64,000 bases of DNA from a virus (lineage: Duplodnaviria; Caudoviricetes): positions 1-64,000 of IMG/VR virus record IMGVR_UViG_2808606954_000002. One strand, given 5' to 3'. This document shows positions 32,530-54,018 of this stretch, piece after piece (the stretch's first letter is position 1; each line of letters opens with the position of its first letter). The notes beneath the pieces were generated by a model, which saw only the letters and a program-made list of their open reading frames with translations, searched no databases and was not told the DNA's origin. The position numbers and the translations under genes are program-made.

Positions 32530-32543
32530 GGAGCGTTTGAACC

Positions 32544-36757: not shown

Positions 36758-36965
36758 AACAAAGGTGCCATTGCCGCCCTGGCCTGATTGGTGCAGGCAA
36801 CACATGCGCCGCATCGTGCCGGTGGCTGGCGGATCGGCGGCGCATGATCAACTTGGCTGGGAGGTCAGTGCCAACCAGCAGGATGCCCGCACTGATGCGT
36901 GTGCGGAAATTTACGACACGCGGCGGGCTGAGTACGGGGGGGGCGCACATGGCACCGGAAATTGA
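36615..36965 (+). CDS. o-spanin candidate lipoprotein
   Basis: Lipobox LSG|C; overlaps the i-spanin in another frame. Confidence 0.65.
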   Translation: MMRLKHLFRLTIALMALAGLPLILSGCLANDNASASLAKAAAQKAVAETKVPLPPWPDWCRQHMRRIVPVAGGSAAHDQLGWEVSANQQDARTDACAEIYDTRRAEYGGGAHGTGN

Positions 36966-37320
36966 CGCGGGTGTGCACCGGATGCTCGGTGAGCTGGTTG
37001 CAGAAATGCGCGGGCTGAAAGAAGACATTCAGGAAATTCGGGGCGCGCAAGTGCGCTCCGAGGATCGCGCAACCCAAAGCCGGGCGGTTGTGCACCGGCG
37101 CATGGATGAAATGGTGGATCGGGTTGGCGCGCTGGAAACCAACATCACCAATGTGCAGACTGATATTGCTGACATTAAGCCGGTGACCAATGAGGTCAAG
37201 CGTTGGAAGCTGATCGGCCTTGGCGCGCTCGGCATGATTGGCATCGGCGGGATCGCGCTTGGCGTATCCTTTGCTGATGTTTTGAAACGGGTTGGCGGTC
37301 TGCTGATTGGTCGGCTCTAG
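36949..37320 (+). CDS. Coiled-coil protein with C-terminal TM segment (DUF1515-like)
   Basis: ATG 36949; typically follows rhizobial phage lysis genes. Confidence 0.65.
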   Translation: MAPEIDAGVHRMLGELVAEMRGLKEDIQEIRGAQVRSEDRATQSRAVVHRRMDEMVDRVGALETNITNVQTDIADIKPVTNEVKRWKLIGLGALGMIGIGGIALGVSFADVLKRVGGLLIGRL

Positions 37321-37740: not shown

Positions 37741-38043
37741 TTATCCATCGCGTCTTGCTCTTCCAAGCATAAAGCTGTTTTGCTGCCGATTGCCGCATTT
37801 TGCGCAGCGCAGCAGCGGCTCCATCGATATGATTGATCTGGCTTTGTGTTTGCGTTGCAGCTCCCAGCGATCCAAAGGCGAGGTATGGTCGCATCGCGCG
37901 CATTTCGCAAACAGGTTATACCATTGGGGCAGGTCTGCCAGCGTGGCGGAATGGTCGCGCTCCGGCACGATGATGCCGGTGGGCCTAGGTGGCAGGTTGT
38001 CGTTGCTGCTGCGGGTTAGGTCTAAGCCTCGACGATGCCGCAT
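37741..38043 (-). CDS. Small C4 zinc-ribbon protein, putatively SOS-regulated
   Basis: CARC...CAKC; LexA box upstream. Confidence 0.65.
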   Translation of the reverse strand: MRHRRGLDLTRSSNDNLPPRPTGIIVPERDHSATLADLPQWYNLFAKCARCDHTSPLDRWELQRKHKARSIISMEPLLRCAKCGNRQQNSFMLGRARRDG

Positions 38044-38067
38044 ATCGCCATCCTCTGGTTTTCACGC

Positions 38068-38111
38068 TTGACATTTGTTCTTAAAATGTTCTCATTTTAA
38101 GAGGGTGTCAA
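38068..38111. promoter_or_regulatory. Overlapping divergent promoters with an alphaproteobacterial LexA box
   Basis: TTGACA at 38068-73 (+) and 38106-11 (-); GTTC-TTAAAAT-GTTC at 38077-38091. Confidence 0.75.
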
Positions 38112-38115
38112 GGCG

Positions 38116-38475
38116 GTGAATTTTGAGGTTGCGATGACGGGCTGGTATGAAAAAAGACTGCATTGGGAAAGGTCGCGTCCCGGCGAAATCGACCCACACA
38201 CGGGCACTTTTTACGAGGATTATGTTGCTTGGTATGATGGACGGCAAGCGGGCCGGATCACGCTGGTCCTTGGCAATATTATGGGTGAAACCTCGTGGCG
38301 CTGGTCGGGTGGTTACCCGGCGGGGTATCGCGGCAAGCCGCTAATGCCAAACACGGGTTATGTTGAAACGGCAAACCAAGCCTGTCGGATGGCTGAAGAG
38401 TATTGGTTTGCAATGCTGGCGGGTTGCAAACCGGCAACGGATGATGATCGGCTCGGTCAGGGCGGCGCTGATTGA
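38116..38475 (+). CDS. Hypothetical Trp-rich protein, putatively SOS-regulated (start 38116 or 38134)
   Basis: Divergent partner downstream of the LexA box; convergent with repC. Confidence 0.6.
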   Translation: MNFEVAMTGWYEKRLHWERSRPGEIDPHTGTFYEDYVAWYDGRQAGRITLVLGNIMGETSWRWSGGYPAGYRGKPLMPNTGYVETANQACRMAEEYWFAMLAGCKPATDDDRLGQGGAD

Positions 38476-38480
38476 AGCCG

Positions 38481-39710
38481 TCAACCATGCTGCCTCCCCT
38501 CCCCTTCTCCGTTTTGCTTCAACAGCGCCATCAGTACCGGCCCCAGCGAGAACTCGCCCGCCTGCGCCTTGGCGGTCAGGCTGCGCAAATAGCCGCCCGC
38601 AGAATTGATCTGCCCTGCCCGCTCTAAAATACAGGCCATGGTTATCGCAGCAGCCTCCGGCCCCATGGCCTCGCAGGCCTGCTGATAGGCCGATGGGCTG
38701 ACGCCAAGCATGGACCGCACCACCACGGCGGCCGCCATCAGATCGCGCCAACCGGATACCGCGCCGCCCGGTCCATAATCGCCGATCTGCGGGCAGGCTT
38801 TCAACACCATGCTTAAGGGGTAGGTTTCCGGCTTGCGCTGTTTTGCCGGTTCCAGCCGTGCCGGTTCCGCCATCATATTTTCTTGGCCGTTTAATTCAAA
38901 TTCATAGGTAGATTCGGTATTTGAATTCTGTATGTGTGCGTCATTGTGGTTGGCATTGGTGGGCATTTTTTCGGATTTTAATTGCATTTCCAGCCGGTTA
39001 ACGACCTCTTCGCGCAAAAGCTCCATCTCGTCGCGGATCTCCATCACCTCGCCCATGGTGGGGCGGCGCGGCAAGCGGGCGAGAATGCTGATATAATGGT
39101 CCTCGGCTGCGGACCAATTGCCCTCGGCCCCCTCCTCAATGGCGGCGGAAATCAGCTTGCGCACATCGCGGCGGCAAATGGTGAGCGCTTCCTTTGCGCG
39201 TTTATAGGCGCGGGCCTCATCGGCCACGGCTTGCGCAAGCTGGGCCAGCTCACCCGCGCGAATAAGCAGCGGTGCCAGGCTAAAGCCGAAAGCGGCTTCA
39301 ATCTCACCTGCCCGGTCGCGGTGGGCGTAGCGCTTGCCGTTTGGGCTATCGCGGCGCTCAATCAACCCCGCCTCAACCAAGGCCGCCAAGGCCCGGCGCA
39401 ATGTGCTGCCTGATATGCCATGCGCGCGGATGGAAAGCTGTGCGTTGCTTGGAAACACAACAAGCCCCATGTCCTCGGAAAGTTCGGTTTCAGGATAGAA
39501 GCTCAACAGCGCATTTAAAACCGCCATGGCTCTATCTTGCAGGCCAAGCTTTTCGCGCGCTTCGCAAGCATCACGAAACACCCGCCATTTATCCACCGCC
39601 CTGCCCGGCTTTGCTTCGGCCCGTTCCATCTGGCCTTTCACCAAAGCAAGCTTCGCCGGTCGCCGCCCAAACGGCGTCGTGATCTGCATATGGGTCATTG
39701 CTTCCTTCAC
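38481..39710 (-). CDS. repC: Plasmid replication initiator RepC
   Basis: TTPFGRR, VFPSNAQL, RRDSPNGKRY, GFSLAPL, INSAGGYLR. Confidence 0.97.
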   Translation of the reverse strand: MKEAMTHMQITTPFGRRPAKLALVKGQMERAEAKPGRAVDKWRVFRDACEAREKLGLQDRAMAVLNALLSFYPETELSEDMGLVVFPSNAQLSIRAHGISGSTLRRALAALVEAGLIERRDSPNGKRYAHRDRAGEIEAAFGFSLAPLLIRAGELAQLAQAVADEARAYKRAKEALTICRRDVRKLISAAIEEGAEGNWSAAEDHYISILARLPRRPTMGEVMEIRDEMELLREEVVNRLEMQLKSEKMPTNANHNDAHIQNSNTESTYEFELNGQENMMAEPARLEPAKQRKPETYPLSMVLKACPQIGDYGPGGAVSGWRDLMAAAVVVRSMLGVSPSAYQQACEAMGPEAAAITMACILERAGQINSAGGYLRSLTAKAQAGEFSLGPVLMALLKQNGEGEGRQHG

Positions 39711-39758
39711 CTTTCAAAAGGCAAAAGAAATCCGCTCACCAAATGGCGTCAAAGACTC

Positions 39759-39847
39759 TTGACTATGATTCTTGGAAATGCGATTCTCTAACTGCTTACA
39801 TCAGAGAGGGCTTCCACGGTTCGCCGTTTGGGGGCCTTTTTCTTTTT
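39759..39847 (+). ncRNA. repABC counter-transcribed RNA (ctRNA/incA/RepE-type) with its promoter
   Basis: In the repB-repC intergenic region: TTGACT-N17-GATTCT promoter, about 55-nt transcript with hairpin AGGGCTTCCA/TGGGGGCCT and U-tail, antisense to the repC leader. Confidence 0.75.
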
Positions 39848-39852
39848 GCCGG

Positions 39853-40833
39853 TCAGTTTCCTTTGTTAAACTCGTCGTACAGTTCTGGCATGCGCGTCAT
39901 CAGATACTCTGCAAACGCCTCATTTTGAGTCCTGTCAATCTCAATCCTGCATTGTTTGCCTCTGAGCGCCAAGGATGCAATCTCTTGCCCGTCGCGGCTT
40001 TTGGCAATTTGTGGGGCCTCGCTCTTTGTGGCGGGCCGCTGCTTGGCAGATGCAAGCGCGGCCTTGAAGCGGTCATCTGACGATTTATGCGCAAAGGTGC
40101 TGTCTTGCGTGGCCTTGCGCACTTGCGGCTCAACCGTGCCTGATTTGAGCAGATCGGCCAGCTCTTGCCAGCGCGGGCGGCCAATCTTTGGCGCGGGGCC
40201 AATGGCCTCAATCAGCCATTGCGGCACGACCGCAGCCACGGCAATCAGCTTTGCCGCCTCGGCCCGATCCACCGCCAAAGCCGCCTGAATGTCAGACCGC
40301 TGAAAACCCGCGCTCTCCAGCCGGTGCGCAAAGGATGCGCGCTCAATAAAGCTTAAATCCTCACGCGCCGAATTTTCCACGCCTTGCGCGATTATCAGGC
40401 TTTGGTCATCCAGATCACGCACATAGGCTTTAACCGGGATGCCTAGCTCTCTAGCTGCCTGCGCGCGGCGATGGCCGTACGCAATCTGGTAGCGGCCTTG
40501 TGCGGTTGGGTGCGGGCGCACAAGGATGGGGATTTCCTGGCCATTGTCTGACAGCGATTGCTTAAGCTGTTCAAGGGCGGCTTTGTTGCCCGATGCCAAG
40601 CGATCCGCAAAAGGTGAGGGGTCCAGATGGGCGGGGTCCAAATCAGCGGCCTGCCCACCTTGCGCAAGCAAGCGGCGCAACTCTTCGTTTTCGGCCTCGA
40701 TGCTGGTGAGTGAGCCTTTCATGGCCTGCACCGCGCCGCTTGCCACGCGCTTTGATGTGGGACGGGCTTGCGGCTCTGTGCCTTCGTCGCCAGCCTTGAA
40801 CATGCCGCGAATAGAATTCATGCGCGAACTCAT
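39853..40833 (-). CDS. repB: Plasmid partitioning protein RepB
   Basis: PILVRPHP...YQIAYGHRR...ENSAREDLSFIE...PKIGRPRW. Confidence 0.95.
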   Translation of the reverse strand: MSSRMNSIRGMFKAGDEGTEPQARPTSKRVASGAVQAMKGSLTSIEAENEELRRLLAQGGQAADLDPAHLDPSPFADRLASGNKAALEQLKQSLSDNGQEIPILVRPHPTAQGRYQIAYGHRRAQAARELGIPVKAYVRDLDDQSLIIAQGVENSAREDLSFIERASFAHRLESAGFQRSDIQAALAVDRAEAAKLIAVAAVVPQWLIEAIGPAPKIGRPRWQELADLLKSGTVEPQVRKATQDSTFAHKSSDDRFKAALASAKQRPATKSEAPQIAKSRDGQEIASLALRGKQCRIEIDRTQNEAFAEYLMTRMPELYDEFNKGN

Positions 40834-40851
40834 TGGCCTGCCCCTTTCATT

Positions 40852-40867
40852 GTTGTCAGCTGACAAC
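40852..40867. promoter_or_regulatory. parS centromere
   Basis: Perfect palindrome GTTGTCAGCTGACAAC (fits GTTNNCNGCNGNNAAC) between repA and repB. Confidence 0.9.
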
Positions 40868-40897
40868 ATATCAAGTGTTTGATTTTATTGATGTGGG

Positions 40898-42115
40898 TCA
40901 TTTTTTGCGACCCCACACCGCCTCGATCATGTCAATCACTTCATTGTTGACGGCATTGATTGACTCCATGGCGCGCTCATAGACATTGCGGCCCACGGTG
41001 CCAGAGGTCAGCTCATAAAGCGACTGTTTGGTCAGGCCAGCGTTGGCGATGGCGGTGGATTTCCACGCGGTCGCAGTCATCACATCCTGCCCGAATACAT
41101 CACGCAACAGCGAAACAATCTCTTGCTCTGGCACGTCGCGCGGGTCGTGGCGGGTCACCAAAAATCGCATGAAATCATAATCCAGCGCGCCGCCCGCCTC
41201 CTCAATCACGGCCACAAGGTCAGAGGTCATCAGCAAAAACTGGCTCATGGATGCCACATCAACCATTTGCGGGTGCACGGTCACAATCATGCCGGTTGCG
41301 GCATTCAGTGCGCCCATGGTCAAAAAGCCAAGCTGCGGCGGGCAATCAATCACCACCACATCAAAATCGTCTTCGACCTCGGCAATGGCCGATGCCACGC
41401 GCCGAAAGAAAATATCGTGCGGGTTGCCGCGATTTTGCATCATGTAGCGCGGTGTCTGGTGTTCAAATTCCATCAGCTCCAGATTGCCCGGCACGATGCT
41501 AACGCCGGTAAAATAGGTGGGCCGGATAATGTCACGCATTTTCACGCGCTCGTCGTCGTAACGAATGGCCGCGTAAAGAGTGCTATTTTCCGCAACGTCA
41601 AATTCTGGCTGATAGCCAAACATGGATGATAAGGACGCCTGCGGGTCCAGATCGATCGCAAGAACACGCAAGCCTTGCAAGGCCAGCCCTTGAGCCAGAT
41701 AAAGCGATGTGGTGGTTTTGGCAGACCCGCCCTTGAAATTGGCAACCGTGATGATTTGCAGCTTCTCACCGACCCGGCGTTGCGGCCAAAATTTCAACGC
41801 CTCTTTTGGCCGCGCCTCGGCCAGATAGGCGCGCAGCTCCATCACCTGGTCCAGCGTGTACGCGCGCCGCCCGGCCCGGCCAATCTCTGGCGCTGGGCCT
41901 AAGCCGTCCAGCGAGAGCTGACGCAAATAGCCGTCCGACACATTGACAATGTTTGCAACCTCGCCACTGGTGAAAGAGCGCAAGGTTTTTTGCGCCGATG
42001 GCGGAAAGGCGCGCTCACCAACGGCCCGCAAGCGCGCAGAAAGCGCCTCGGCGCGCTCGGTGATTTTCGATGCCGTGCTCATAGCTTGCGTACTCTCTAC
42101 AGCGCTCATTTTCAT
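40898..42115 (-). CDS. repA: Plasmid partitioning ATPase RepA (start approximate)
   Basis: NFKGGSAKTT, DLDPQASL, IDCPPQLG. Confidence 0.97.
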   Translation of the reverse strand: MKMSAVESTQAMSTASKITERAEALSARLRAVGERAFPPSAQKTLRSFTSGEVANIVNVSDGYLRQLSLDGLGPAPEIGRAGRRAYTLDQVMELRAYLAEARPKEALKFWPQRRVGEKLQIITVANFKGGSAKTTTSLYLAQGLALQGLRVLAIDLDPQASLSSMFGYQPEFDVAENSTLYAAIRYDDERVKMRDIIRPTYFTGVSIVPGNLELMEFEHQTPRYMMQNRGNPHDIFFRRVASAIAEVEDDFDVVVIDCPPQLGFLTMGALNAATGMIVTVHPQMVDVASMSQFLLMTSDLVAVIEEAGGALDYDFMRFLVTRHDPRDVPEQEIVSLLRDVFGQDVMTATAWKSTAIANAGLTKQSLYELTSGTVGRNVYERAMESINAVNNEVIDMIEAVWGRKK

Positions 42116-42226
42116 CTCAGACGTTTCTAGCTCGTTAAACGCATTATTTCCGTTTTCAAAATGCACACGATTCTAATGTGGTTGCAAGATGTTTTTCGTA
42201 AATGAATGGTAAACGCATTGATTTGA

Positions 42227-42270
42227 CATGAAAAAGCCGCCTCAAAGGGCGGCTTTCTCTGTTTTGGGGC
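42227..42270. repeat. 44-bp direct repeat copy 1 containing a terminator hairpin
   Basis: CATGAAAAAGCCGCCTCAAAGGGCGGCTTTCTCTGTTTTGGGGC, identical at 43609-43652. Confidence 0.9.
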
Positions 42271-42279
42271 GTGTGCCCG

Positions 42280-42705
42280 TTAGGCGGCTTGGCGAACTGA
42301 CAAGACAATCTCTTGGCCAAGGGCCTCAAGCGCATCGGCCATAACGCCGATTTTAGAAGCGTGATCGGGGTCCAGTAACCGGCGCGCTTCATTTTCTGTT
42401 TTGCCAATGCGGCGCGCCAATTCCGTTTTTGAAATCCCCGCCTCATTGAACGCCTGGATCAGTGCAAGCTTTGCCGCCACATCGGCCACGACCGCAATGT
42501 CGTGGCCTTCCTGTGCCACAGGGGCGGGCAGGGGGCGGCCTTCCTGCATGATACCGCGCAGGGCAAGGCCAAGGGCTTCTCTGGCGCTTGCTACGGCTTC
42601 CTTCATTGTTTCCCCGTGGGTGATGGCCTCTGGCACATCGGCAAAGGTCACCACAAAGCCGCCGTCCGGATCTGTCTCAATTGTTGCTTTATAAGTGTAT
42701 TGCAT
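42280..42705 (-). CDS. hicB: HicB antitoxin
   Basis: FVVTFADVPEAITHGET.EA...C-terminal HTH. Confidence 0.9.
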   Translation of the reverse strand: MQYTYKATIETDPDGGFVVTFADVPEAITHGETMKEAVASAREALGLALRGIMQEGRPLPAPVAQEGHDIAVVADVAAKLALIQAFNEAGISKTELARRIGKTENEARRLLDPDHASKIGVMADALEALGQEIVLSVRQAA

Positions 42706-42763
42706 AGGTTGATGCCTTCTTTGTCACTTGATGATGATGATGTGGAATGAGGCGGGCTTGGCA

Positions 42764-42958
42764 TCATTTGATGCCAAGCTGTTTCTTGATAAGGCCTACA
42801 TAGAGCGGGGTCATTTCGCCGGATTTTATCGTGGTCGATTTTCCGTTGAGTGTTACCCGATAGTGAGAGCCTTTCCCGTTGTCTTCGAAAACCTCAAATT
42901 CCCAACCGTTGGATTTTGCTATTTTGCGAAGCTCTCTGAGAAGTTGTTCTCGCTTCAT
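42764..42958 (-). CDS. hicA: HicA toxin
   Basis: 64 aa, GKGSH motif; GGAGAGG RBS before ATG 42958. Confidence 0.85.
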   Translation of the reverse strand: MKREQLLRELRKIAKSNGWEFEVFEDNGKGSHYRVTLNGKSTTIKSGEMTPLYVGLIKKQLGIK

Positions 42959-42985
42959 TTCCTCTCCTTTCCTGCAATTATGTAT

Positions 42986-43032
42986 CGCACATTTTTGTGC
43001 GTATTGCAAATAAAATCGCACAAATTTGTGCG
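42986..43032. promoter_or_regulatory. Two palindromic operators of hicAB
   Basis: CGCACATTTTTGTGCG (42986-43001) and CGCACAAATTTGTGCG (43017-43032). Confidence 0.7.
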
Positions 43033-43305
43033 TTTTATTTTGAAGAAAATGAGGGTGCCCCAGTATGCAGGCCAAGATTATCGCACTCCGACTGGCGTAT
43101 TCATCTGCTCCACTGCCAATCGCGATCAGCGACAGAAAATTTCTGTTGCATCCATAAGGGAGGCAAGCTATTTTAGGAACAAGGCGTATTCTGAGTAGGT
43201 CACGAAACCGAAATTTTGAGCCCGTTCGACGAACCTATGATCCCACGTTAGAGGGAGATTACGGTTCGTCCGTGTCTCCTGCTGTTTATTTATAAGGAGA
43301 TACGC

Positions 43306-43494
43306 ATGAAAGATCGGAAAAAAAATTATAGTAAGTTCCAAGCCAGCTTTGTTGCTGGCTGCGGCATTTGCGCGCTTATTATAGCAGTGGTGATTGCTGT
43401 TGTGCCTTTGCCAGGAGATACACGCTTATTAGTGGCGATTTTCCAAGCATTCTTCTTACTGTTTGTGAACGGTAGCAAAGGATTATTGAAGTAA
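43306..43494 (+). CDS. Small two-TM membrane protein
   Basis: AAGGAG RBS; AT-rich; inside the repeat-bounded cassette. Confidence 0.6.
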   Translation: MKDRKKNYSKFQASFVAGCGICALIIAVVIAVVPLPGDTRLLVAIFQAFFLLFVNGSKGLLK

Positions 43495-43608
43495 GGCCGT
43501 GTTGAAAGGCGGCCAAGTGCTTGACAGCATGTCACACTGTCACCTTCTTGGATCAAGCGAGGCCTTTCAGCTCTCATTCGTACACCAACGTTCAATGCAT
43601 AGATTTCG

Positions 43609-43652
43609 CATGAAAAAGCCGCCTCAAAGGGCGGCTTTCTCTGTTTTGGGGC
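43609..43652. repeat. 44-bp direct repeat copy 2 / terminator of the leftward operon
   Basis: Identical to 42227-42270. Confidence 0.9.
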
Positions 43653-43775
43653 AGGGGAGGGGCATTCATGGCGGCGGTTTGCGGGCTTTATCCACTTTGG
43701 CCAGCCAGCGGCCAAGGCTTTCTGGGTTATACCAACAAACCCAGATGATAGCGGAAATGGTGGTTACAAGGAACG

Positions 43776-44624
43776 TCATGGCTGGGCTTCCAATCCCTTG
43801 CGCCGTTCCAGCTCGGCAGCAATCATGGTTTCGGCTTCGGTTTCTGTTGCTGTGTCCACCTCAAAATTATCATCGCTATCAGCGTCAGGTGCCGGTGGCA
43901 GAAAAGCGTAATATCTGGTTTCAACAACGCCGCCCCGCGAATATTCCAGCACTTCGCCCGGTTCCAATTCCAGATTCTCGGCGATGCCGCCGGGTGATCT
44001 TGCGGCGGCCTCGCTGCTGGTGTCATCGCTCGGCCAATACCAATCGCATGCGGCCATTATCTTGGCTGTGGCGCTCGCTTGGCTTTGCAGCTCCGCTATC
44101 TGCTCGGTCTTATCAAACAACGCAGTTTTTAGACGAAAGATCATGCTGATTAGCATGTGGGCATCGATAGAGCTGATCACGGCTGTCTTGCCGCTATTGG
44201 GGTTGCCGACCTGTTTGACAATCTTTTCGATGACCTCGGATGCTTTTCCCCAACTCTCACTTGTTGGCATCTGTGTGAGCTTTGTGGTCAACTCGTTGGC
44301 GTCACTGGTGGCGTTGAACTTGCGGATAACGGCCTGCTCAAGATCAATATGCGCTGTGTAAGCCACAAGCGTGGTCGTGTGGATCACATCGGCCAGTTCG
44401 TCGGCCAGCTGCTCAAACGTAGCGCGTGATCCGCGCCAGCCAAGGCGCTCACGCTCCAGCTTTTTGATAATGTTGCAGGCCTCGCCAACCTCTCCGGCCA
44501 GCTCATTGCCGCGAAAAGAGAGATCGGGCATTTGATCCGGGCACCATTCCGCCTGACGCGCGGCGTGGGCGGCGGCGAGGTTGCGAAATGTCAGTGAGTT
44601 GAAAGCATCAAGGTTGCTTGTCAT
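43776..44624 (-). CDS. MazG-like nucleotide pyrophosphohydrolase with C-terminal extension
   Basis: ELAGEVGEACNIIKK...LADELADV. Confidence 0.8.
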   Translation of the reverse strand: MTSNLDAFNSLTFRNLAAAHAARQAEWCPDQMPDLSFRGNELAGEVGEACNIIKKLERERLGWRGSRATFEQLADELADVIHTTTLVAYTAHIDLEQAVIRKFNATSDANELTTKLTQMPTSESWGKASEVIEKIVKQVGNPNSGKTAVISSIDAHMLISMIFRLKTALFDKTEQIAELQSQASATAKIMAACDWYWPSDDTSSEAAARSPGGIAENLELEPGEVLEYSRGGVVETRYYAFLPPAPDADSDDNFEVDTATETEAETMIAAELERRKGLEAQP

Positions 44625-45712
44625 GCTGCCCTCCTTGGGAAACCGTTGTGCTCGACGCCATCCAGCAAGCGACCGGCCTCGGACTTTTTGAGTTTGAGCC
44701 ACATCGGGCCGTCTGGTGATTTCTTGCTGTCAAGCCAGCCAAACTTGTCGGATTTTTTCAGCCACCGATCATGTTTGTTGGAGGATGCGGCGGTGAAAAA
44801 TACGCCGTCGCCGTGATCCTCGGCTGTGCCGCCAAGGTGTGCGCCCCATTGCTTAAACAAAAACGGCACCCCTGCGGCTGCGCATTGATCGCGCAATGAC
44901 CGCGCCCAATCTGGATGCATAGGCCGGGCACTTTTGCCGCTTTCGCCGCCTGCTACGACCCAATCAAGTCCGGGCTTGCATCGCTCATCGTGATGATGGT
45001 GCAGGTGGCGCGGGCAATCCGGTGTCCCGATGCCATAATGCTCTCCGCCACAGCCACGTTGCCCGCCAATCCATAGCGTACCGCCAAGTGTGCTGACTAA
45101 ATCAATTGGTCCCAACAGCGGCTCCGCGCTGATCCACCGCACGGCGGAGGGGGTGTCCAGCAAAATCGGAATGCGCTGATCTGCATGGCGTTGATCCTCG
45201 ACCGATACGCCAAGCCAGACGTTTGGCAGGGGCATTTCGAGCGCTCCCTTTCTGTTGCCAAGCCCAAAGGGTATAAGGTTGATTGCCTTACAGAGCGCGG
45301 TATTGCCCATGCCGTTGCGGGAAACTAAATATTCCCGCATACGCTCCGGCCTCTTGGTCAAAACCTGAAACGTATGCTGCGGTGCCAGCGCCATGACGGC
45401 AAAAATCTGGTCAAGCCAATCGTCTTTCACGGCCTCGGCAAACAGATCGCCATGCGCGACAACGAAAACCATGCGCGGCTTGGACCATTGCAACGGCTGT
45501 AAAAGCCATTGCTCGTTAAACCGTACCTCGCCTGTCCAGACGTGCTTGCCGTTGACTTGCTGGGTCAGTCCCTCGCGGCTGGGGTGATTGCGCAGCCGTG
45601 TGCCAGCCAGATTCATCGCATAGCAATTTGTGCAGCCCGGCGATGTGATCTTGCAGCCGGTGATGACCTGCCAAGTGGCGTCGGTCCATTCGATCTTGCT
45701 GTTATCCGCCAT
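44621..45712 (-). CDS. Phage Gp37/Gp68 (DUF5131) family protein
   Basis: SKIEWTDATW, GCKITSPGCTNCYA, RWISAEPLLG, GGESG, FKQWG. Confidence 0.9.
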   Translation of the reverse strand: MADNSKIEWTDATWQVITGCKITSPGCTNCYAMNLAGTRLRNHPSREGLTQQVNGKHVWTGEVRFNEQWLLQPLQWSKPRMVFVVAHGDLFAEAVKDDWLDQIFAVMALAPQHTFQVLTKRPERMREYLVSRNGMGNTALCKAINLIPFGLGNRKGALEMPLPNVWLGVSVEDQRHADQRIPILLDTPSAVRWISAEPLLGPIDLVSTLGGTLWIGGQRGCGGEHYGIGTPDCPRHLHHHHDERCKPGLDWVVAGGESGKSARPMHPDWARSLRDQCAAAGVPFLFKQWGAHLGGTAEDHGDGVFFTAASSNKHDRWLKKSDKFGWLDSKKSPDGPMWLKLKKSEAGRLLDGVEHNGFPRRAA

Positions 45713-46428
45713 CACCCAACCTCCTTGATCTGATCTATGTTTTGTTTGATGACGCGGAATGTGTAGGCCGCAACCCATGGGTTAGGGTAAATGTAATGGG
45801 GTTTACCGCGATGCGTTTCTGTACGGCGGGTGCCGTCCCACGGAAAGCTCTCAAAATGGCTGATCTTGCCATCGCCGCCCGTCACTGGCTTCGGCTTGGT
45901 GTTGATGCTATTCCAGAGGATGGCATAGGCTTGCTTTGGGTTTGTCGCGTAATGGCTATCCGCATCCGTGCCGTAGTGGATCAATGGCCCGTCAAGCTTG
46001 TGAATGCCCTCTGCAATTGCATCCGCCTCACTAATATCCTGCAAGCGCTCTATTCGCACGTCTGTGACAGTCAGTGTGATACGGCTGGCCCAACGCGGCA
46101 TGAAAATGGATGGCCGCCAAGTATAGCCGCGCGCTTTCGCGTCAAGATCAGCGCAGGGGTCTGTTGCGGCAAAGCGCAGTTCGCACGGCTCGTGCTTGGT
46201 TGGTTTAAAATCGCCAAACGTCAGGCCTTGCCACGTTTCTTTGACCCAAAGCCGGTCGCCAACCTGATATTTGGTGTTAAACGCACCTGTTGCGACCTGG
46301 ACTGAAATATCATCATCAAAATCAAATGGCGGCGGCGGGGTAAAGATTCGGCGGGTTTGCGTCTTTCGATCATCCAAGAGCGCGCGGACCATCGGGCCGC
46401 TAAAAAGGATTGGTTTATCGGCCATCAC
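45712..46428 (-). CDS. ASCH-like phage protein
   Basis: PILFSGPMVRALLDDRKTQTRR, GDRLWVKE, WRPSIFMPRWASRITL. Confidence 0.75.
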   Translation of the reverse strand: MMADKPILFSGPMVRALLDDRKTQTRRIFTPPPPFDFDDDISVQVATGAFNTKYQVGDRLWVKETWQGLTFGDFKPTKHEPCELRFAATDPCADLDAKARGYTWRPSIFMPRWASRITLTVTDVRIERLQDISEADAIAEGIHKLDGPLIHYGTDADSHYATNPKQAYAILWNSINTKPKPVTGGDGKISHFESFPWDGTRRTETHRGKPHYIYPNPWVAAYTFRVIKQNIDQIKEVG

Positions 46429-46832
46429 GCACCTGCCTTTTCTGAAAGCTTATGCTTGTCGATGGCCGCAATCGCATGGTCGTAGCCCGCCATGACTGCG
46501 CCTTTGACTTCGTTGCGCGCAATTTTGCGAGCGCGGGGCGTTGATAGGTCAAAGGCCTGCACGGTCATGATGGCCAGCGCTTCGCCGGTCATCATCCATA
46601 GGGCCGTTTGCAGCTGGATGGGGTCCAGCGAAAACTTGATGTTTGCGCTATTCACGCTTTCGACCACAGCGGCGGTCATAAAGCGACCGATGTGCAAGAG
46701 GCATCTTTCGTCTTCTGTCAGCGTCGTGTCTGGATCTTCAACCGACAGGGCCATCAAATCCAATATCTCATGGCCTTGCGCAAATTTATGATCAATCAGT
46801 TCAAAAAGGCCTTTCGTTTTTGTTGCCATCAC
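46425..46832 (-). CDS. Phage hypothetical protein
   Basis: Coupled ORF in the leftward operon. Confidence 0.6.
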   Translation of the reverse strand: MMATKTKGLFELIDHKFAQGHEILDLMALSVEDPDTTLTEDERCLLHIGRFMTAAVVESVNSANIKFSLDPIQLQTALWMMTGEALAIMTVQAFDLSTPRARKIARNEVKGAVMAGYDHAIAAIDKHKLSEKAGA

Positions 46833-47032
46833 GCACCCCCCTTGATCATTTTAACCTTGCTGATTGCCAAGCCTTCGCGGCTCCCACGCTTGCGGGCCTC
46901 GGCTGGGTTTCCGGCGCTAACGTCTGCGGTTGAGCCGTCCGAAAAATGCAGGCGGAACGGGGTCAGGTTTTCGGGATTTGTGGGATAAGCCTCATTATGA
47001 GACTTGGCGTCTACTGTGCTTTGTTCTGCCAT
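46829..47032 (-). CDS. Phage hypothetical protein
   Basis: Coupled small ORF. Confidence 0.55.
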   Translation of the reverse strand: MAEQSTVDAKSHNEAYPTNPENLTPFRLHFSDGSTADVSAGNPAEARKRGSREGLAISKVKMIKGGA

Positions 47033-47550
47033 TTTCTGAAATCTTTCTTGAGGTTAGCCCATTTGTGCGCGGCGGCCTGGTCGTGGTCGAGGTCGCTGCG
47101 GGAACCGATATTGAGAATTGAGCGCACACGGTTGGCGGCGGCGTCTTTGCCGGTGCTTTCCAGCCCGTGGCACTCGCGAAGAAAGGCTTGAAATTCAGCT
47201 TTTGCACAAAGCATGGCGCAATCACGCGCAAGCTTTGGGGCCTTGAGCTGGTCATTCTCGGCCTGCAACCTTGCGGCCTGTTGTTGGGCCTCGGCAACCT
47301 GCTGTGTGCGCCGGTCCAGCAACACCAAAAGTGCCGCCGCGTTGCGATAGGCATTGATGACCAATTCCGCGTCGTCAAACGGTGGCGACTTTGCCAGCCG
47401 CGCCACCGGCAAAGCCGGAAACCCATGGCCTTCGCGGGTCAAAATTGTCCGCTCACCGTTATGGTCCACAGCAACGGACCATTCCGGTGCGGCCAAGGCC
47501 ACGGTTTGGCGGATTTTCGGCAACAGCGCGGCGGCCTGTTCTACGTTCAA
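47011..47550 (-). CDS. Phage hypothetical protein
   Basis: TTG start at 47550 with GAGGAGG RBS. Confidence 0.6.
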   Translation of the reverse strand: MNVEQAAALLPKIRQTVALAAPEWSVAVDHNGERTILTREGHGFPALPVARLAKSPPFDDAELVINAYRNAAALLVLLDRRTQQVAEAQQQAARLQAENDQLKAPKLARDCAMLCAKAEFQAFLRECHGLESTGKDAAANRVRSILNIGSRSDLDHDQAAAHKWANLKKDFRKWQNKAQ

Positions 47551-48407
47551 CCGTTTGCCTCCTCGCTGGTTGCGGGGGCGGGCGGATGCGTCAGAAAATG
47601 CGCCGGTATGTCGGGAATGTCGCAGGCGGTCTGATGCGCGTAGAGGCCTATAAATTCCGGGCATTTATCGATCTGTAAAATGCTGACGCCTGCCAAATAC
47701 GCATTGGTAGTCGGCTGCACACCACCTTGTTTTGCGGTGTGTTGCATATGCAGGGCTGACTTATGCAGCGCCGCAAAATGCTCGTGAATGCGGACAAAGG
47801 GAGCTGTTAGCGCCGGATTGAAGAACGACTTGCTTCCTGTTGCATCGGGCGAGTTAAGCGCTTTGCGAAGTAATGCGCGCCAATTCCATTGGATTCCTGC
47901 ACTAGCCCTGTAGTCCATACCGCTGTTGTGGTATCTGAAACTTGCTGATCTCGAGTAAAGGGCGGGCTGGAAATAGTTGTCCTCTTCCGCCCAATCAGGG
48001 TGCCGCATTTTGGGGCTGATGTGAATACCGGCGTCATAAAAATAGGCTGTGCCTGGCTGTGCCCATGCTGGCGCTTGCAGTGTATAACTTCCGCCTTCGA
48101 AGGTCATGAATGTCGGCTCTGGTCCTTTGGCAACATCATAGGCGGCCTCTGGGATGTCCAATGTCATTGGTTCGGTTGCACGGCCATCAGGATCGTGGAT
48201 CACTGCTAGCGTAAGGCCGCACGTTGCCGTGAGATACACGCCGCCGATCTCTGCTGGCTCAATACTAAGCGCGCCTTTCCAGAGCCGCAGCTCATCGCCG
48301 TGACTGTTTGCTTCATCCACTATCGGTTTCAAAATGTGGAGATATTTCGCTTTTGTGAAAGCAAGTAGGCTTTTAACTTTCGTCTGTGGTTGCTTGGTTT
48401 CCGTCAT
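47547..48407 (-). CDS. Beta-clamp-like fold protein (tentative)
   Basis: GVYLTATCGLTLAVIHD resembles the clamp motif ATDGHRL. Confidence 0.45.
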   Translation of the reverse strand: MTETKQPQTKVKSLLAFTKAKYLHILKPIVDEANSHGDELRLWKGALSIEPAEIGGVYLTATCGLTLAVIHDPDGRATEPMTLDIPEAAYDVAKGPEPTFMTFEGGSYTLQAPAWAQPGTAYFYDAGIHISPKMRHPDWAEEDNYFQPALYSRSASFRYHNSGMDYRASAGIQWNWRALLRKALNSPDATGSKSFFNPALTAPFVRIHEHFAALHKSALHMQHTAKQGGVQPTTNAYLAGVSILQIDKCPEFIGLYAHQTACDIPDIPAHFLTHPPAPATSEEANG

Positions 48408-48706
48408 GGTTCGTCCTTGAAATAGGGGATTTGTCTTGGTGGGGCGGGAAGGGCCAAAAGCTCTTTGGCTTTGGCAATTCGTGGGCTTGGCCCTAAGGTT
48501 TTTGCGGCTTTGGCGGGGGGGGGTTCGGCTGCATCTTGCTCGGCCTGGGCCTGAGAGAGTTGGCGCAGCAATTCGCCAAGGTCGTAAGGATCGCGGGTTA
48601 TAAGCTCCACTTTCAGGGTCGATTCAGTGCCCCTGCTGGTTTGCCGCGTGGCGGCTGAAAAGGTTTTCAGCCTTGTGCCGGGGTGGCTCCAATAAAGTAT
48701 GCTCAT
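48404..48706 (-). CDS. Phage hypothetical protein
   Basis: Coupled ORF. Confidence 0.6.
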   Translation of the reverse strand: MSILYWSHPGTRLKTFSAATRQTSRGTESTLKVELITRDPYDLGELLRQLSQAQAEQDAAEPPPAKAAKTLGPSPRIAKAKELLALPAPPRQIPYFKDEP

Positions 48707-49053
48707 CGGGCCAGTTCCATGCGCCGTTCGCGGTCTGCAATGGCCGCCACTTGCGCACCAATGCGCGCCACTGTGATGCGGTGGCCAAGCTTGGTGGTCA
48801 TTTCAAAGCGGGGGATGGTGGCCGCTGTTTCGCGGCTGGGCAGGGTTGAGGGCTTTTTGGGCTTGCGGGGTTTCAAGGCTTTCCTCCTTGTGGGTTGCAG
48901 ACACAAACCGGCCATCGCGGCCCACGGCATGGGCGCGTTGTGCGTGTTTTTGTCGGGTGGGTCCGTTCGGGAAACCGCAAGCGGCGGGCTTGCGGAAACC
49001 GGAAAGGGCCGGGTTAGACGGTTTCGCGGGTCATGCTGATGCACTCCCGACAT
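48703..49053 (-). CDS. Phage hypothetical protein (start uncertain; 5' part overlaps a structured element)
   Basis: ORF track; the N-terminus looks like translated structured RNA. Confidence 0.4.
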   Translation of the reverse strand: MSGVHQHDPRNRLTRPFPVSASPPLAVSRTDPPDKNTHNAPMPWAAMAGLCLQPTRRKALKPRKPKKPSTLPSRETAATIPRFEMTTKLGHRITVARIGAQVAAIADRERRMELAR

Positions 49054-49495
49054 TTGCCCGCCTTACGGAAATGCCCTTGAGAAAATCGCGAAAACTCAGA
49101 TCGCTACTGTCGCTAAAGCGCAAAAAGGCTGCGTATTTGGCTGCCGACGCGCTTTTGTCCACCAAAACCATCGTGTGCGCGCCGTCGAGAGAAAGACGCG
49201 ACCCAACTATGACCTCATAAGCTTTATGTGGATCTTTGATTTCTTTCAGGTGGTTCGAGAGCGCTTTGCGTCCAGCTTCGGTCACGTGGAATGCAGCCGT
49301 ACCGTACGCATCATGCCTGCCCTTTTTCCAGTTTGGCGAGGCGGCGAACTGTCGCGCAAGGGTGCTATTCGTACTTGTGACAAAATAATTCCGTGCCGTT
49401 TCCCCCAATGGATCGAAAGGTCGGCCAAGGGCGTGATCAATATGATCCATTTCTTTGTCGTCAAGTGAGCGGTCTATGGATGGATTCGTCATCAT
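49031..49495 (-). CDS. First large gene of the PL operon, hypothetical
   Basis: HALGRP...RNYFVT motif; downstream of PL. Confidence 0.6.
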   Translation of the reverse strand: MMTNPSIDRSLDDKEMDHIDHALGRPFDPLGETARNYFVTSTNSTLARQFAASPNWKKGRHDAYGTAAFHVTEAGRKALSNHLKEIKDPHKAYEVIVGSRLSLDGAHTMVLVDKSASAAKYAAFLRFSDSSDLSFRDFLKGISVRRANVGSASA

Positions 49496-49656
49496 GCCGA
49501 TGCTCTCTCAATGTTGTTGCGTGGTTCGGCGGCTGAAAAACGGCGCAGGAAATCCATCGGCAAGCGGCGCTTGCACGTTGAAATTCTACCCTGCTCGTGG
49601 TCTATATCGGTTTGGTTGTGGTGGTTTTGGGGTTGTTTTTCTGATGCAAGGAATAA

Positions 49657-49679
49657 GGGGAATTATTTCCCCATGTCAA
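49657..49679 (-). promoter_or_regulatory. PL promoter with OL operator
   Basis: Palindrome GGGGAATTATTTCCCC (49657-72) next to TTGACA on the minus strand (49674-79). Confidence 0.7.
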
Positions 49680-49725
49680 GAGGAGAAACTAGCCGCAGTA
49701 ATAGAGAGATACTTCTGGAGGTTTT

Positions 49726-50220
49726 ATGGGGAGAAAATCTGTTGCGTTGCTGATTTTGGCGGCATCTTCGCTTTCTGTGGCGGGGCTGGCTAGTAGTGAT
49801 GATCAGACGGACGCTAAACAGTCGGCTTTCAAGGAATGCCGCGCTCAAGGCTACTCTTACCTATCAGCATGTCTCAAAGTGTATATGAATGATGATAGCG
49901 TTGTGGCAGCCGATATGGGCAATCATCTTGATGTAGAGTTCACCACTCGGCCCCTAACAATCGACCTTTCAAAAAATGAGTATCTGCGAGATGTGAAATT
50001 TTATATTCCGCGCCTGTTCGACGTCTTCAAAGGTGCGGATAAAATCAATTTCACAATGTTTGCGCAAATGCGAACGGTTCAAGGAAATGACGTTACTATT
50101 AGGGCAATATCGACAACTATTTCTCGGAAAAAATCACTGAGTACAAACTGGCAAAATGTTGATATTAAAAAAATCCCTGCCTTTGCAGATGACTATTGGC
50201 AAGCGCCGTCCTATCGGTGA
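49726..50220 (+). CDS. Exported protein in the immunity region
   Basis: Signal-peptide-like N-terminus; AT-rich; GGAGG RBS. Confidence 0.7.
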   Translation: MGRKSVALLILAASSLSVAGLASSDDQTDAKQSAFKECRAQGYSYLSACLKVYMNDDSVVAADMGNHLDVEFTTRPLTIDLSKNEYLRDVKFYIPRLFDVFKGADKINFTMFAQMRTVQGNDVTIRAISTTISRKKSLSTNWQNVDIKKIPAFADDYWQAPSYR

Positions 50221-50232
50221 CGGAATTATCGT

Positions 50233-50604
50233 TTAGCTTTTCGCAATCTCCGTTGCTGTCGCGATAGTCCGCATTTTGCTGATCTGCTGCATTAAGATAG
50301 CCCTATCCCTGCCGCCTTGCTCTAACAGCACACCCGCAGCGCAGGTTGCTTTCAACCGGCCAATGATTGGCGTGTCTGTTTGCGCTGTCAGCCACAGCGC
50401 AACAACAGCGTCGGGCACCGGTTCGGTAACAGTTGCAAAAGCTACGTCCCCCGCGAAAAAGTAGGGTTCAAGGCTGGTATCAGGAATCACCACGGGAATT
50501 GGTTGTTCCTGGAAAAAGCTGCCTTTTGTCTCAGCGCTGGGTGCATTCTCATCATCTGAGTATTTCAGGTATTCCATTGCTTCCACGCGATTACCCCTTT
50601 CCAT
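50233..50604 (-). CDS. Stand-alone S24-like (CI C-terminal) domain lacking the catalytic Lys
   Basis: SLEPYFFAGD resembles CI SMEPQYFAGD; IIGRL where VKRL is expected; no HTH. Confidence 0.6.
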   Translation of the reverse strand: MERGNRVEAMEYLKYSDDENAPSAETKGSFFQEQPIPVVIPDTSLEPYFFAGDVAFATVTEPVPDAVVALWLTAQTDTPIIGRLKATCAAGVLLEQGGRDRAILMQQISKMRTIATATEIAKS

Positions 50605-50949
50605 GGGCAAAATGCCGGACGTTTTAATCGTACGTCAAGCACATCAATTGCGTGTGTTTTGCAACAATGGCGGGGCGGCTGTAAGCGGCTAAACCCTTGG
50701 TTATAAAAACTTTGAAAAATCAGCGTAGTTTATAGGATCATTTTTTAAGGATAACGTAAAATAGGTGTAACATGCCTATTTTTCTTTGTTTTTAGTTCTT
50801 TCTTATATTCCGAATTTACCCGATAATATTCATGGGTTTTTCGGAGCAGGCCATGGCGGCGGTTGTAGACACCATAGTTGATATACTCGCGCACATGAGT
50901 GCCGATGAGCGCGCCGCCTATGAAATCTGGCTCGGCTGCGCGGCCTGTC

Positions 50950-51333
50950 CTATGCTGTCTGATTGCGATTTTGGGCAGCAATATGGCGAGCTTTTTGCAG
51001 CGCCATCGGCAGGCGCTCCGGCTCCTGCCGTGCCAGCCGTGCCAGCCCCGCAAAAATAGCCGCCAACTGCTCCAACTGCTCGGCAATCTCTTCGTCGCTG
51101 CCCGGTTCAATCAACCGCGCCACCGGCTTTGCGCTGTTGTGCGGGTTGACGGTCAAAAGCTCGTGGATCGTGCATTGCAGCGCTGCTGCCAGCTTTTCCA
51201 GCGTTCTGGCGCTTGGGTTTTCCACGCCGCGCTCAATATCGGATATGTGTTGCGCGCCAATTTCGGCGCGGGCTGCAAGCTGCTTTTGGGCCAGGCGGCG
51301 GAATTTGCGCCACTCGCGAACAAAATTTTGCAT
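50950..51333 (-). CDS. XRE-family HTH regulator downstream of cI
   Basis: LAQKQLAARAEIGAQHISDIERG. Confidence 0.8.
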   Translation of the reverse strand: MQNFVREWRKFRRLAQKQLAARAEIGAQHISDIERGVENPSARTLEKLAAALQCTIHELLTVNPHNSAKPVARLIEPGSDEEIAEQLEQLAAIFAGLARLARQEPERLPMALQKARHIAAQNRNQTA

Positions 51334-51342
51334 GATTTGCGC

Positions 51343-52029
51343 TCACACGCCAAAATATTCGTTGTTGGTGACAACGCGATGCACCGATTTGACGGTTTCG
51401 CGCGGCAATTCCACCTGCGCGCCGGGCGGATTGCGCTTGCCAATCAGCAGCATCTTCTCAGTCTCGCGCACAAAAATGCCCACAGATGCCTCAATATCGG
51501 CATGTTCGCTGTTTTGGGTTTGCACAACAACGTTGTCGCCTGCCTTGTAAGGCCTGTGCGGATTGATCAGGATAAGATCACCGGCAAAATATTGCGGCTC
51601 CATGCTTTGGCCCACAACATAGAGGCCGTAAATATCGCGTTTGCCCATCAGGCCGGGCGGGCAGCGCACATGCTCAATCACGCCACCGGCAAGCTGAAAC
51701 GCCCCACGCGCCAAAGAGCCTGCGGCTGTGCCAAGCACCGGGATGGTCTTTGGCCATTCCGATGTTGGTGGCAGTGCGGACACGGCTGCTGTTTTGCGGG
51801 CAATCTCATCATCGGAAATGCTATGGTCGCCGCGCAACAGCCACTCCGTACTGACTTGCAAAACGGCTGCGATTTTATCGATGTTTTCCCCGCGCGGCGA
51901 TGAATTTGGATTTTTTAGCATCATCCGCAAATAGCTGCGGTCCCGCCCCATAGCAGCAGATACCTTGCCTGGGTTTAGGCCAAGCTCTTTTATGCGCTGT
52001 TTTATGCGCTCGTGGACCGGGTTTTTCAT
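51343..52029 (-). CDS. cI: CI-like repressor (HTH plus S24-like domain)
   Basis: HTH; GTAAGS; GQSMEP; Gly at the expected Lys position (SVGIF). Confidence 0.88.
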   Translation of the reverse strand: MKNPVHERIKQRIKELGLNPGKVSAAMGRDRSYLRMMLKNPNSSPRGENIDKIAAVLQVSTEWLLRGDHSISDDEIARKTAAVSALPPTSEWPKTIPVLGTAAGSLARGAFQLAGGVIEHVRCPPGLMGKRDIYGLYVVGQSMEPQYFAGDLILINPHRPYKAGDNVVVQTQNSEHADIEASVGIFVRETEKMLLIGKRNPPGAQVELPRETVKSVHRVVTNNEYFGV

Positions 52030-52050
52030 AGGTCCATTATCATCTGCTTT

Positions 52051-52110
52051 GGGGAATTCTTGAACGGGATATATATTACCTTGACAATGAGGAATCTTTT
52101 CCCCATTCAA
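52051..52110. promoter_or_regulatory. OR operators and PR promoter
   Basis: GAGGAATCTTTTCCCC (52089-104, 13/16 identical to OL); weaker copies at 52051 and 52065; TTGACA at 52081-86. The cro ATG lies about at the predicted +1 (leaderless). Confidence 0.65.
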
Positions 52111-52116
52111 TTCTCT

Positions 52117-52368
52117 ATGACCCTGAGAGACCAAATCACAAAAGTTGCCGAACTCTACCTCGCTGTCAGCGGGCAAGGTCGCACGACTGTTTCCAAGCGC
52201 GTCTTTAACCGTGGCTCTCGGCTTGATGAAATCATCGGCGGCAAAGACCTCGCTACCCGCATTTTCGAACGCGCCATGCAGTGGTTTTCCGACAACTGGC
52301 CTGATGGTGCCGCTTGGCCTGCTGATGTTCCGCGCCCCGCCGTTCAAACTGTGGAGGTCGCGCAATGA
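52117..52368 (+). CDS. Cro-like regulator
   Basis: Divergent from cI; WFSDNWPDGAAWP signature. Confidence 0.75.
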   Translation: MTLRDQITKVAELYLAVSGQGRTTVSKRVFNRGSRLDEIIGGKDLATRIFERAMQWFSDNWPDGAAWPADVPRPAVQTVEVAQ

Positions 52369-53791: not shown

Positions 53792-54018
53792 TGGCAACAG
53801 CGCGGGTGAGATTGCGGGTAACAAAGGTTTGCTGCCCTGCTTGCAAGGGGTCTGGAACGTATCTTTCGGCCTTTGTGTGCCACATATGCGGCGGTGAAAA
53901 GCGGGTAGAGCCAGTGGTCGCGTTTGATTTTATCAGGCGCATGACATGCTCGTGGCATCCTGACACTGCCGCAAAAGGTCGGCGGTTTTTGGATTGTTTG
54001 ATGGGGCTGCCGCTATGA
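53788..54018 (+). CDS. DnaJ-type zinc-finger small protein
   Basis: CPACKGSG...CHICGG. Confidence 0.55.
   Translation: MMATARVRLRVTKVCCPACKGSGTYLSAFVCHICGGEKRVEPVVAFDFIRRMTCSWHPDTAAKGRRFLDCLMGLPL

Follow-up and report, generated by a model that had tools for sequence, protein, structure and literature searches.

Phages such as P1 and N15 establish lysogeny as low-copy plasmids and carry a partition system in place of an integration function. Within the Rhizobiaceae, the dominant replicon of plasmids, chromids and symbiosis/virulence plasmids is repABC. The analyzed stretch of DNA (64,000 nucleotides; hereafter the window) constitutes the first 64 kb of the 82,729-bp IMG/VR record IMGVR_UViG_2808606954_000002, which is classed there as a provirus, and it brings these two themes together. 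Most of the window and the remainder of the record can be divided between a Mu-like transposable prophage and a 44,329-bp temperate, cos-type, contractile-tailed phage, harboured by a member of the Rhizobium family, in which the attP-int segment has been exchanged for a hicAB-repABC module. Judged by its gene content the latter is probably a phage-plasmid, although it is not free in the assembly from which the record derives.

Phages that carry an initiator of the RepC family have been published. They include pLM21S1, a plasmid-like prophage of Sinorhizobium sp. LM21 (PMC5537653), and likewise the RHEph10-like rhizobiophages, while the Roseobacter phage-plasmids of the Tritonibacter mobilis A3R06 type reportedly use ParABS or RepABC systems (bioRxiv 10.1101/2022.11.02.514943). 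The element in the window thus adds a rare member to a known kind, and its notable features are the clean exchange of the integrase for a replicon and the fusion with a Mu-like phage. It nevertheless differs from each of the described systems. P1, N15 and the Roseobacter phage-plasmids have other backbones and replicons and were observed as free plasmids, unlike the element described here. pLM21S1 and the RHEph10-like phages are much larger (115-122 kb), represent an unrelated phage type and encode a RepC with only 28-30% identity; the text consulted (PMC5537653) does not describe a complete cassette of repA, repB and repC with ctRNA and parS in them. The best plasmid match for the large terminase subunit (TerL) was found on pAtCFBP5507b of Agrobacterium salinitolerans CFBP5507 (NZ_CP109971.1), a circular plasmid of 46,243 bp. 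This plasmid shares the divergent XRE repressor/cro pair, the DUF5131 early operon, the NusG-family protein, the gpA-type TerL, the portal, the ClpP-type protease and the contractile tail; it has lysis genes and Dam at the late end, lacks a tyrosine integrase, and carries its maintenance genes between the late and the early-left ends. The TerL proteins are, however, only 44% identical, the tail gene order is P2-like, and a small ParA with partner, a serine recombinase (resolvase) and BrnT are present instead of repABC and hicAB. Close relatives of the phage were found neither in IMG/VR, using TerL or RepC patterns, nor in INPHARED at the DNA level.

The exchange can be read from a comparison with integrase-bearing sibling prophages. 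Copy 1 of the prophages in strain N19 (Rhizobium oryziradicis; G004:C27:140,101-182,305) is delimited at 140,101 and 182,282 by the two copies of a 24-bp att sequence. Its integrase gene (140166-141170) directly abuts a homologue of the MazG-like gene with which the similarity to the window starts (43774 onward), and homology to window 36458-38116 is found in its right arm, after which the attR arm and the att core follow. Where the window has the 5,658-bp module (38116-43773), this prophage thus carries its attR arm, att core and integrase gene. Since the breakpoints could be mapped on both sides, and the cI/cro, cos-type phage has no integrase, the original prediction of a repABC replicon in the place of the integrase is supported. 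An integrase in this position recurs in the other relatives: all four prophages with the lysis block (three in N19 and one in A. vitis S00303) have an integrase on the early-left side, with the lysis block 34-41 kb to the right of it. MazG-like or DUF5131 genes adjoin the integrase in N19 copy 1 and in the A. vitis prophage, and in a Mesorhizobium relative the integrase closes the DUF5131 operon. The early-left genes and the lysis/SOS right arm of the three N19 prophages and of the A. vitis S00303 prophage (G002:C2, ~278-320 kb) are 72-86% identical to those of the window at the nucleotide level, whereas attP-int (with the 24-bp att core in N19 copy 1) takes the place of repABC-hicAB. The N19 copies lack a homologue of the gpA-type terminase and should therefore be regarded as mosaic relatives and not as the same phage. 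No match to PF00589 (Phage_integrase) or PF00239 (Resolvase) was recovered in the whole 82.7-kb record, and the phage thus combines genes for plasmid replication and partition with the lack of an integration module. The broader statement that the window holds no recombinase gene at all has to be corrected, as a Mu-type DDE transposase (4938-7022) and MuB (7061-8104) are encoded there, be it by the other phage.

The module itself comprises repCBA, hicBA, a 113-amino-acid (aa) open reading frame (ORF), a 62-aa membrane ORF and a duplicated terminator (Table 1). It has the hallmarks of the repABC family: repA, repB and repC follow each other on the same strand, an S-element precedes repC, and the repA-repB spacer holds a palindromic parS, the consensus of which (GTTNNCNGCNGNNAAC) has a single exact match in the whole window, at 40852-40867. 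The antisense ctRNA in the repB-repC spacer scored 39.2 bits (E 1.5e-7) and thus stays short of the gathering threshold of 50. Apart from this sub-threshold match, the Pfam, Rfam and parS hits bear out the predicted intact repA-parS-repB-ctRNA-repC cassette with hicAB upstream. The hicAB genes lie in a low-G+C segment bracketed by 76-bp direct repeats (42195-42270 and 43577-43652) that are 87% identical and that each carry the same intrinsic terminator on the minus strand (42233-42256 and 43615-43638). This cassette has the appearance of a segment that was inserted later, at the terminator preceding repA. The original prediction had the operon of the leftward promoter PL run through hicAB into repABC; all genes concerned are indeed on the minus strand, but the continuity of transcription is doubtful because repA is parted from the early-left genes by two terminator copies and by a promoter/operator that serves hicAB separately, and a single PL transcript is not the default reading.

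The closest relatives of the cassette are found on plasmids of Allorhizobium and Agrobacterium. RepC shares 86% identity, along its entire length, with a plasmid RepC of Allorhizobium ampelinum, and 3,778 bp of repABC align at 82% nucleotide identity with a mobilisable plasmid of that species (NBZE01000003.1), on which hicAB is likewise located directly upstream of repA. This plasmid and the 98-kb plasmid of A. vitis F2/5 share the cassette type, yet they carry relaxase, ParDE, Tn3 and transport genes and lack phage structural genes, and the HicA and HicB of the A. ampelinum plasmid are unlike those of the window. Fragments resembling orf107 and Dam (record 80704-81112 and 79995-80479) flank hicAB-repABC on the A. 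ampelinum plasmid (L071, 6295-6704 and 11426-11855), and an ABC-3C system is adjacent. On a plasmid contig of R. paknamense, a stretch of 146 bp (G003:C29:30962-31107) shares 85% identity with the iterons and their surroundings in the Lambda-O-like initiator gene (window 56759-56903). The repA gene 1.3 kb downstream of this stretch belongs to a cassette with 77% identity to that of the window, a hint that the replicon lineage and the phage replication module were already connected at an earlier time.

The phage genes on both sides of the module make up a complete set, with packaging, head, contractile tail, immunity and, given the assignment discussed below, lysis functions. The layout is lambdoid: a cI-type repressor of the S24 type and a cro-side ORF diverge from each other, as had been predicted, and the initiator gene downstream contains four iterons of 21-24 bp at 56779-56860. 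The predicted separate initiator with iterons is real and, going by gene content, would serve lytic growth. The late operon runs from 59.4 to about 79.7 kb of the record and adds a ClpP-capsid fusion, sheath, tube, tape measure, baseplate and fibre to the genes listed in Table 1; the remaining head and tail genes that the original prediction called for are thus present (about 59.4-79.4 kb), mostly beyond the window. On the opposite side the lysis cassette, with a terminator 3' of it at 37344-37370, converges on repC as had been described. Between the two, the promoter region of the 100-aa gene contains an exact alphaproteobacterial SOS box (GTTC-N7-GTTC, 38077-38091). The box is positioned between two opposed TTGACA hexamers (38068-38116) and is kept in the N19 prophages beside attR, making the region a candidate SOS-sensing module for induction.

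Table 1. Features of the window (positions of the window; beyond 64,000, of the record)
Feature	Position	Strand	Basis and remarks
Plasmid-maintenance module	38116..43773 (5,658 bp)	-	Interrupts the homology to N19 prophage copy 1 between 38116 and 43774
113-aa ORF, convergent with repC	38135..38475	+	Gene call; no Pfam family matched
repC, replication initiator, 405 aa	38481..39698	-	Full-length Pfam matches to RP-C and RP-C_C
S-element, repC leader structure	39696..39764	-	Rfam RF00490, 69.2 bits (gathering score 47)
ctRNA, antisense, repB-repC spacer	39805..39849	+	Rfam RF00489 (ctRNA_p42d), model positions 1-46 of 46
repB, ParB-type partition protein, 326 aa	39853..40833	-	RepB and ParB_N domains; gene call
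parS, 16-bp perfect palindrome GTTGTCAGCTGACAAC	40852..40867	.	In the repA-repB spacer
repA, ParA-type ATPase, 403 aa	40898..42109	-	AAA_31, CbiA and MipZ domains; gene call
Low-G+C cassette (hicB, hicA, 62-aa ORF)	42195..43652	-	Bracketed by 76-bp direct repeats
hicB	42280..42705	-	Pfam
hicA-like gene, 64 aa	42764..42958	-	Palindromic operators upstream
Membrane ORF, 62 aa	43306..43494	+	Gene call
Lysis cassette	35477..37320	+	Holin 35477-35698, GH24-type endolysin 35685-36275, 161-aa ORF 36272-36757, DUF1515 protein to 37320
100-aa gene	37741..38115	-	Last block common to integrase-type relatives before the replaced module
Early-left genes	43776..51333	-	MazG-like 43776-44624, DUF5131 44621-45712, ~10 small ORFs; homologues beside the integrase in N19 and A. 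vitis prophages
cI-type repressor	51343..52029	-	HTH_3 and Peptidase_S24; residues 258-459 of a long ORF
cro-side ORF, divergent	52012..52368	+	phrog_7669 matches residues 34-117; true start probably downstream of 52012
Early-right genes	53994..56430	+	Include two DNA-methyltransferase-like proteins, 53994-55487 and 55771-56430 (PHROGs)
Lambda-O-like initiator	56304..57695	+	phrog_270, E 1.3e-34
NusG-family protein	57376..58314	+	Pfam NusG; precedes the late genes
Start of the late operon	59427..64000	+	TerS 59427-59981, TerL (lambda gpA type) 59959-62181, lambda-family portal from 62442
Mu-like transposable prophage (context only)	1818..33637	+	Pfam, PHROGs
Fibre tip and chaperone N-terminus module, copy 1	33638..35074	+	Mu-like/phage-plasmid junction; copy 2 at record 77967-79403

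The gene content suggests how such an element could be maintained. A 5.66-kb hicAB-repABC block would have been taken from an Allorhizobium-type plasmid, thereby replacing attP-int. In the lysogen, RepC would then replicate the prophage at low copy number, RepA, RepB and parS would partition it, and HicAB would kill the cells that lose the element. Upon a flip of the cI/cro switch the Lambda-O-like initiator and its iterons could take over and drive lytic replication. Both the plasmid state of the lysogen and this division of labour between the two initiators are what we infer from the genes present.

The genomic context seems at odds with a free plasmid. The record corresponds to positions 368366-451094 of a 568,017-bp contig (VIVD01000003.1, assembly GCA_007993855.1; 10.5 kb compared at each end without a mismatch), and both its ends coincide exactly with stop codons. 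To the left it is flanked by the gene for an ABC-3C defence ATPase, followed by YjbQ, GGDEF/EAL, HNOB, LysR and LysE genes, and to the right by tRNA-Met, SIMPL, porin, EamA, GntR-aminotransferase, SNase and metH genes. Given these host genes on both flanks, the element in the sole assembly is not the small circular replicon that the original prediction would have led one to expect, and the large replicon with housekeeping genes that had been named in advance as a refuting context is literally what surrounds it (metH, tRNA-Met, GGDEF/EAL). A circular record was considered and rejected: terminal overlap is absent, and the low-G+C ends that were first taken as a hint of a circle are the cut points of the provirus. 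The tRNA-Met, 223 bp past the right end of the record, was likewise rejected as an att site because no repeat of it was found within the record and 10 kb on either side. The same tRNA-Met is used in N19 by a 16-kb island (G004:C27:507916-523852), which encodes its own tyrosine integrase and is bordered by a second occurrence of the tRNA 3' end.

The setting can also be taken to mean that the element is not a phage-plasmid, and that repABC-hicAB is the replication module of the large replicon, or the relic of a cointegrated plasmid, next to a defective prophage without integrase. Megaplasmids and chromids of the repABC type are standard in the Rhizobiaceae, the surrounding genes are of the housekeeping type, and both the plasmid location of all the nearest repABC relatives and the terminators that insulate the cassette from the phage operon fit such an origin. 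It does not explain, however, why both edges of the 5.66-kb module match the attP-int edges of a sibling prophage, nor why other plasmid backbone genes do not accompany it. In addition, the syntenic scaffold (C27) of N19, a close relative, has the same locus, and repC was not found on it (nor were dnaA and translational GTPase genes), indicating that the replicon does not depend on the repABC cassette and arguing against the cassette as the large replicon's own origin. Finally, phage and module together amount to 44.3 kb, which is packageable and near the 46.2 kb of the real plasmid pAtCFBP5507b. We deem this explanation unlikely.

How the phage-plasmid came to lie between host genes is connected to a second phage, which the original prediction had overlooked: the Mu-like prophage at 1.8-35 kb, with its own transposase and lysis cassette. 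The tail-fibre region at the border of the two phages is present twice in the record. Self-BLAST showed a repeat of 1,437 bp with 96.8% identity, and its core (33687-34865 and record 78016-79194; 1,179 bp) contains only 3 mismatches (99.7%), with exact runs of 337, 543 and 279 bp. Near-identical receptor-binding tips in two otherwise unrelated myophage tails point to a very recent exchange between co-resident phages. Four lines of evidence indicate that the DNA to the right of copy 1 belongs to the second, repABC-bearing phage, and that to the right of copy 2 to the Mu-like phage. First, the lysis block and the gene with the SOS box (35.5-38.1 kb) recur with 72-86% nucleotide identity at the right ends of the integrase-type prophages. 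Secondly, the Mu-like phage already holds a lysis cassette, with endolysin and spanin at the canonical Mu position (10746-11868). Thirdly, the Mu-type fibre N-terminus of A. vitis is followed by another type of chaperone (151 aa), and it is this type that follows copy 2 here. Fourthly, a Mu remnant at the syntenic locus of N19 fuses MuA at residue ~192 straight to the 3' end of Dam. That N19 had lost Mu, repABC and the phage through a 75-kb deletion was considered at first and rejected once the Dam block had been assigned to the Mu-like arm. Un-interleaving the two phages at the repeat yields a circle of 44,329 bp (record 35074-79403) and a Mu-like prophage of ~40 kb. These lines also uphold the earlier claim that the lysis cassette is part of the repABC phage, an assignment that depends on the crossover model.

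The joined layout reflects either a cointegrate formed by homologous recombination or a mis-join in the assembly. For the former, one RecA-type crossover at the fibre repeat would suffice to make a cointegrate with the Mu-like prophage, and the event would be reversible by the same route. Such a putative crossover could make the element a working repABC phage-plasmid that shuttles, dependent on RecA, between a free plasmid and an Hfr-like state inside the Mu-like prophage, at the exchanged receptor-binding module; we put this forward as a speculative possibility. For the latter, the phage-plasmid would be a free 44.3-kb circle and the Mu-like prophage intact, the assembler having threaded the plasmid through the 1.18-kb fibre segment. 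This is possible as well, if somewhat doubtful. The exact shared runs exceed the length of short reads, the layout is exactly what wrong pairing of the incoming and outgoing edges at a two-copy repeat would give, and in the integrated state both phages would be too large or too disrupted for packaging. Moreover, the independent Logan assembly of the sequencing run contains the flanking defence gene and misses both chimeric chaperone genes that mark the ends of the repeat, which fits contig breaks at those positions. On the other hand, the three mismatches divide the repeat into segments amenable to phasing with paired reads, and the 568-kb contig, which runs through both copies, may thus have been resolved correctly. 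A mis-join would touch the state of the element only, and the phage-plasmid reading would be stronger if it were true.

A different subdivision has the Mu-like phage (from about 1781 to 37333) simply nested in the other phage, with the second lysis cassette as Mu cargo and a repABC phage that includes Dam and lacks lysis genes. TG...CA termini with an AAAGC repeat, a candidate 5-bp target duplication, can be pointed out at 1781 and 37333, and pAtCFBP5507b does carry Dam at the end of its late operon. Yet an equally good AAAGC candidate exists at 1781/81086, which makes the 5-bp match weak evidence, and the integrase-type prophage of A. vitis is homologous (80%) across the proposed right end, over 35458-37371. 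Nesting would also give two lysis cassettes to the Mu-like phage and none to the other, it disagrees with the pairing in A. vitis of the Mu-type fibre with the other chaperone type, and A. vitis S00303 has a Mu-like phage at the same left flank but neither a close terminase of the repABC phage (best 29-32%) nor a close homologue of the repABC of the window (best about 68% at the nucleotide level). We consider nesting very improbable.

The assignment of the neighbouring prophage to the Mu group is clear. Its left part encodes the c repressor (1818-2504, minus strand), the MuA DDE transposase, of which relatives were found with 83-91% identity, MuB and GemA. Further to the right follow TerS (12917-13561), a Mu-type portal (15239-16846), MuF, protease I, the capsid protein gpT (20169-21062), sheath, tape measure, baseplate and the N-terminus of the fibre. 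The homology to Mu-like relatives ends at the c stop codon, and the target duplication is limited to the weak AAAGC candidates. The 9-bp direct repeat GTGAATTTT is present both at this stop codon (1811-1819) and at the exact left breakpoint of the repABC module (38116-38124); it is probably due to chance, though its position is striking. A unit of 424 bp that starts with TGTTGTCTGACA is located 3.9 kb to the left of c, outside the record, and recurs to the left of c in other Mu-like prophages. Two tandem copies are present at L002:12540-13390 (2.0-2.9 kb to the left of window position 1), and similar sequence was observed to the left of c in A. vitis Mu-like prophages and 70 bp past the Dam-orf107 block in R. 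paknamense. The unit is probably the Mu-like left end, although an inverted partner was not found. If so, the ABC-3C system would be Mu cargo and the IMG/VR record would truncate the prophage.

This low-G+C ABC-3C defence system occupies positions 1-1700 and continues to the left of the record (L002:10509-12428). Its components are MC5 (1-507), an AAA_23 ATPase of 639 aa and, at 504-1700, a CTD9 effector that includes a DUF676 esterase domain, and the system is split by the provirus boundary; N19 and A. vitis carry other cargo in the slot to the left of Mu c. At the opposite end of the record two low-G+C genes (81304-82729; L001:18304-19729), encoding 308 aa and 165 aa (the latter with predicted membrane segments), are located between the Dam-orf107 block and tRNA-Met; N19 has unrelated DNA in their place, and in A. 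vitis they are almost entirely missing. The candidate TG/CA pair with AAAGC flank at 1781/81086 would make these two genes continuous with the ABC-3C island. As proof that Dam marks the Mu right end, R. paknamense turned out to be only partly useful: Dam and orf107 are found 33.5 kb to the right of one MuA and also immediately to the left of a second Mu-like left end, and homologues of the tail genes were not found between MuA and Dam-orf107.

Several observations weigh against the reading of the element as a phage-plasmid fused to a Mu-like prophage. A free or circular form was not observed, the element being embedded between host genes in the 568-kb contig. The five nearest RepC relatives of which the context was inspected are all on ordinary plasmids, and none of them is accompanied by phage genes (0/5). 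The terminators that part repABC from the early phage operon render co-regulation hypothetical. In the crossover model Dam and orf107 are part of the Mu-like phage, and the model does not account for the fragments of their homologues on either side of hicAB-repABC on the A. ampelinum plasmid. Searches for Mu ends by inverted repeats and motifs, in which left candidates were compared to 36.6-38.5 kb or 80.6-83 kb, returned nothing convincing. Finally, two conserved peptide patterns of RepC had no match in IMG/VR, and the 31-mer across the phage/repABC junction was absent from IMG/VR and from metagenome contigs; considering the lack of both a RepC match and a second copy of the junction, this is a single example.

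The breakpoints of the exchange of int for a replicon are readable against integrase-bearing siblings, which makes the phage a clean natural example of a temperate phage turning into a phage-plasmid. The apparent fusion in the fibre tip suggests that the exchange of receptor modules between co-resident phages can rearrange replicons as well, and it illustrates how two phages can end up in a single record through provirus calling and assembly. For the Rhizobiaceae, a tailed phage with a canonical repABC would bring the incompatibility and partition interactions with the repABC plasmids, chromids and symbiosis/virulence plasmids into phage biology, and transduction would become a route for the spread of repABC.

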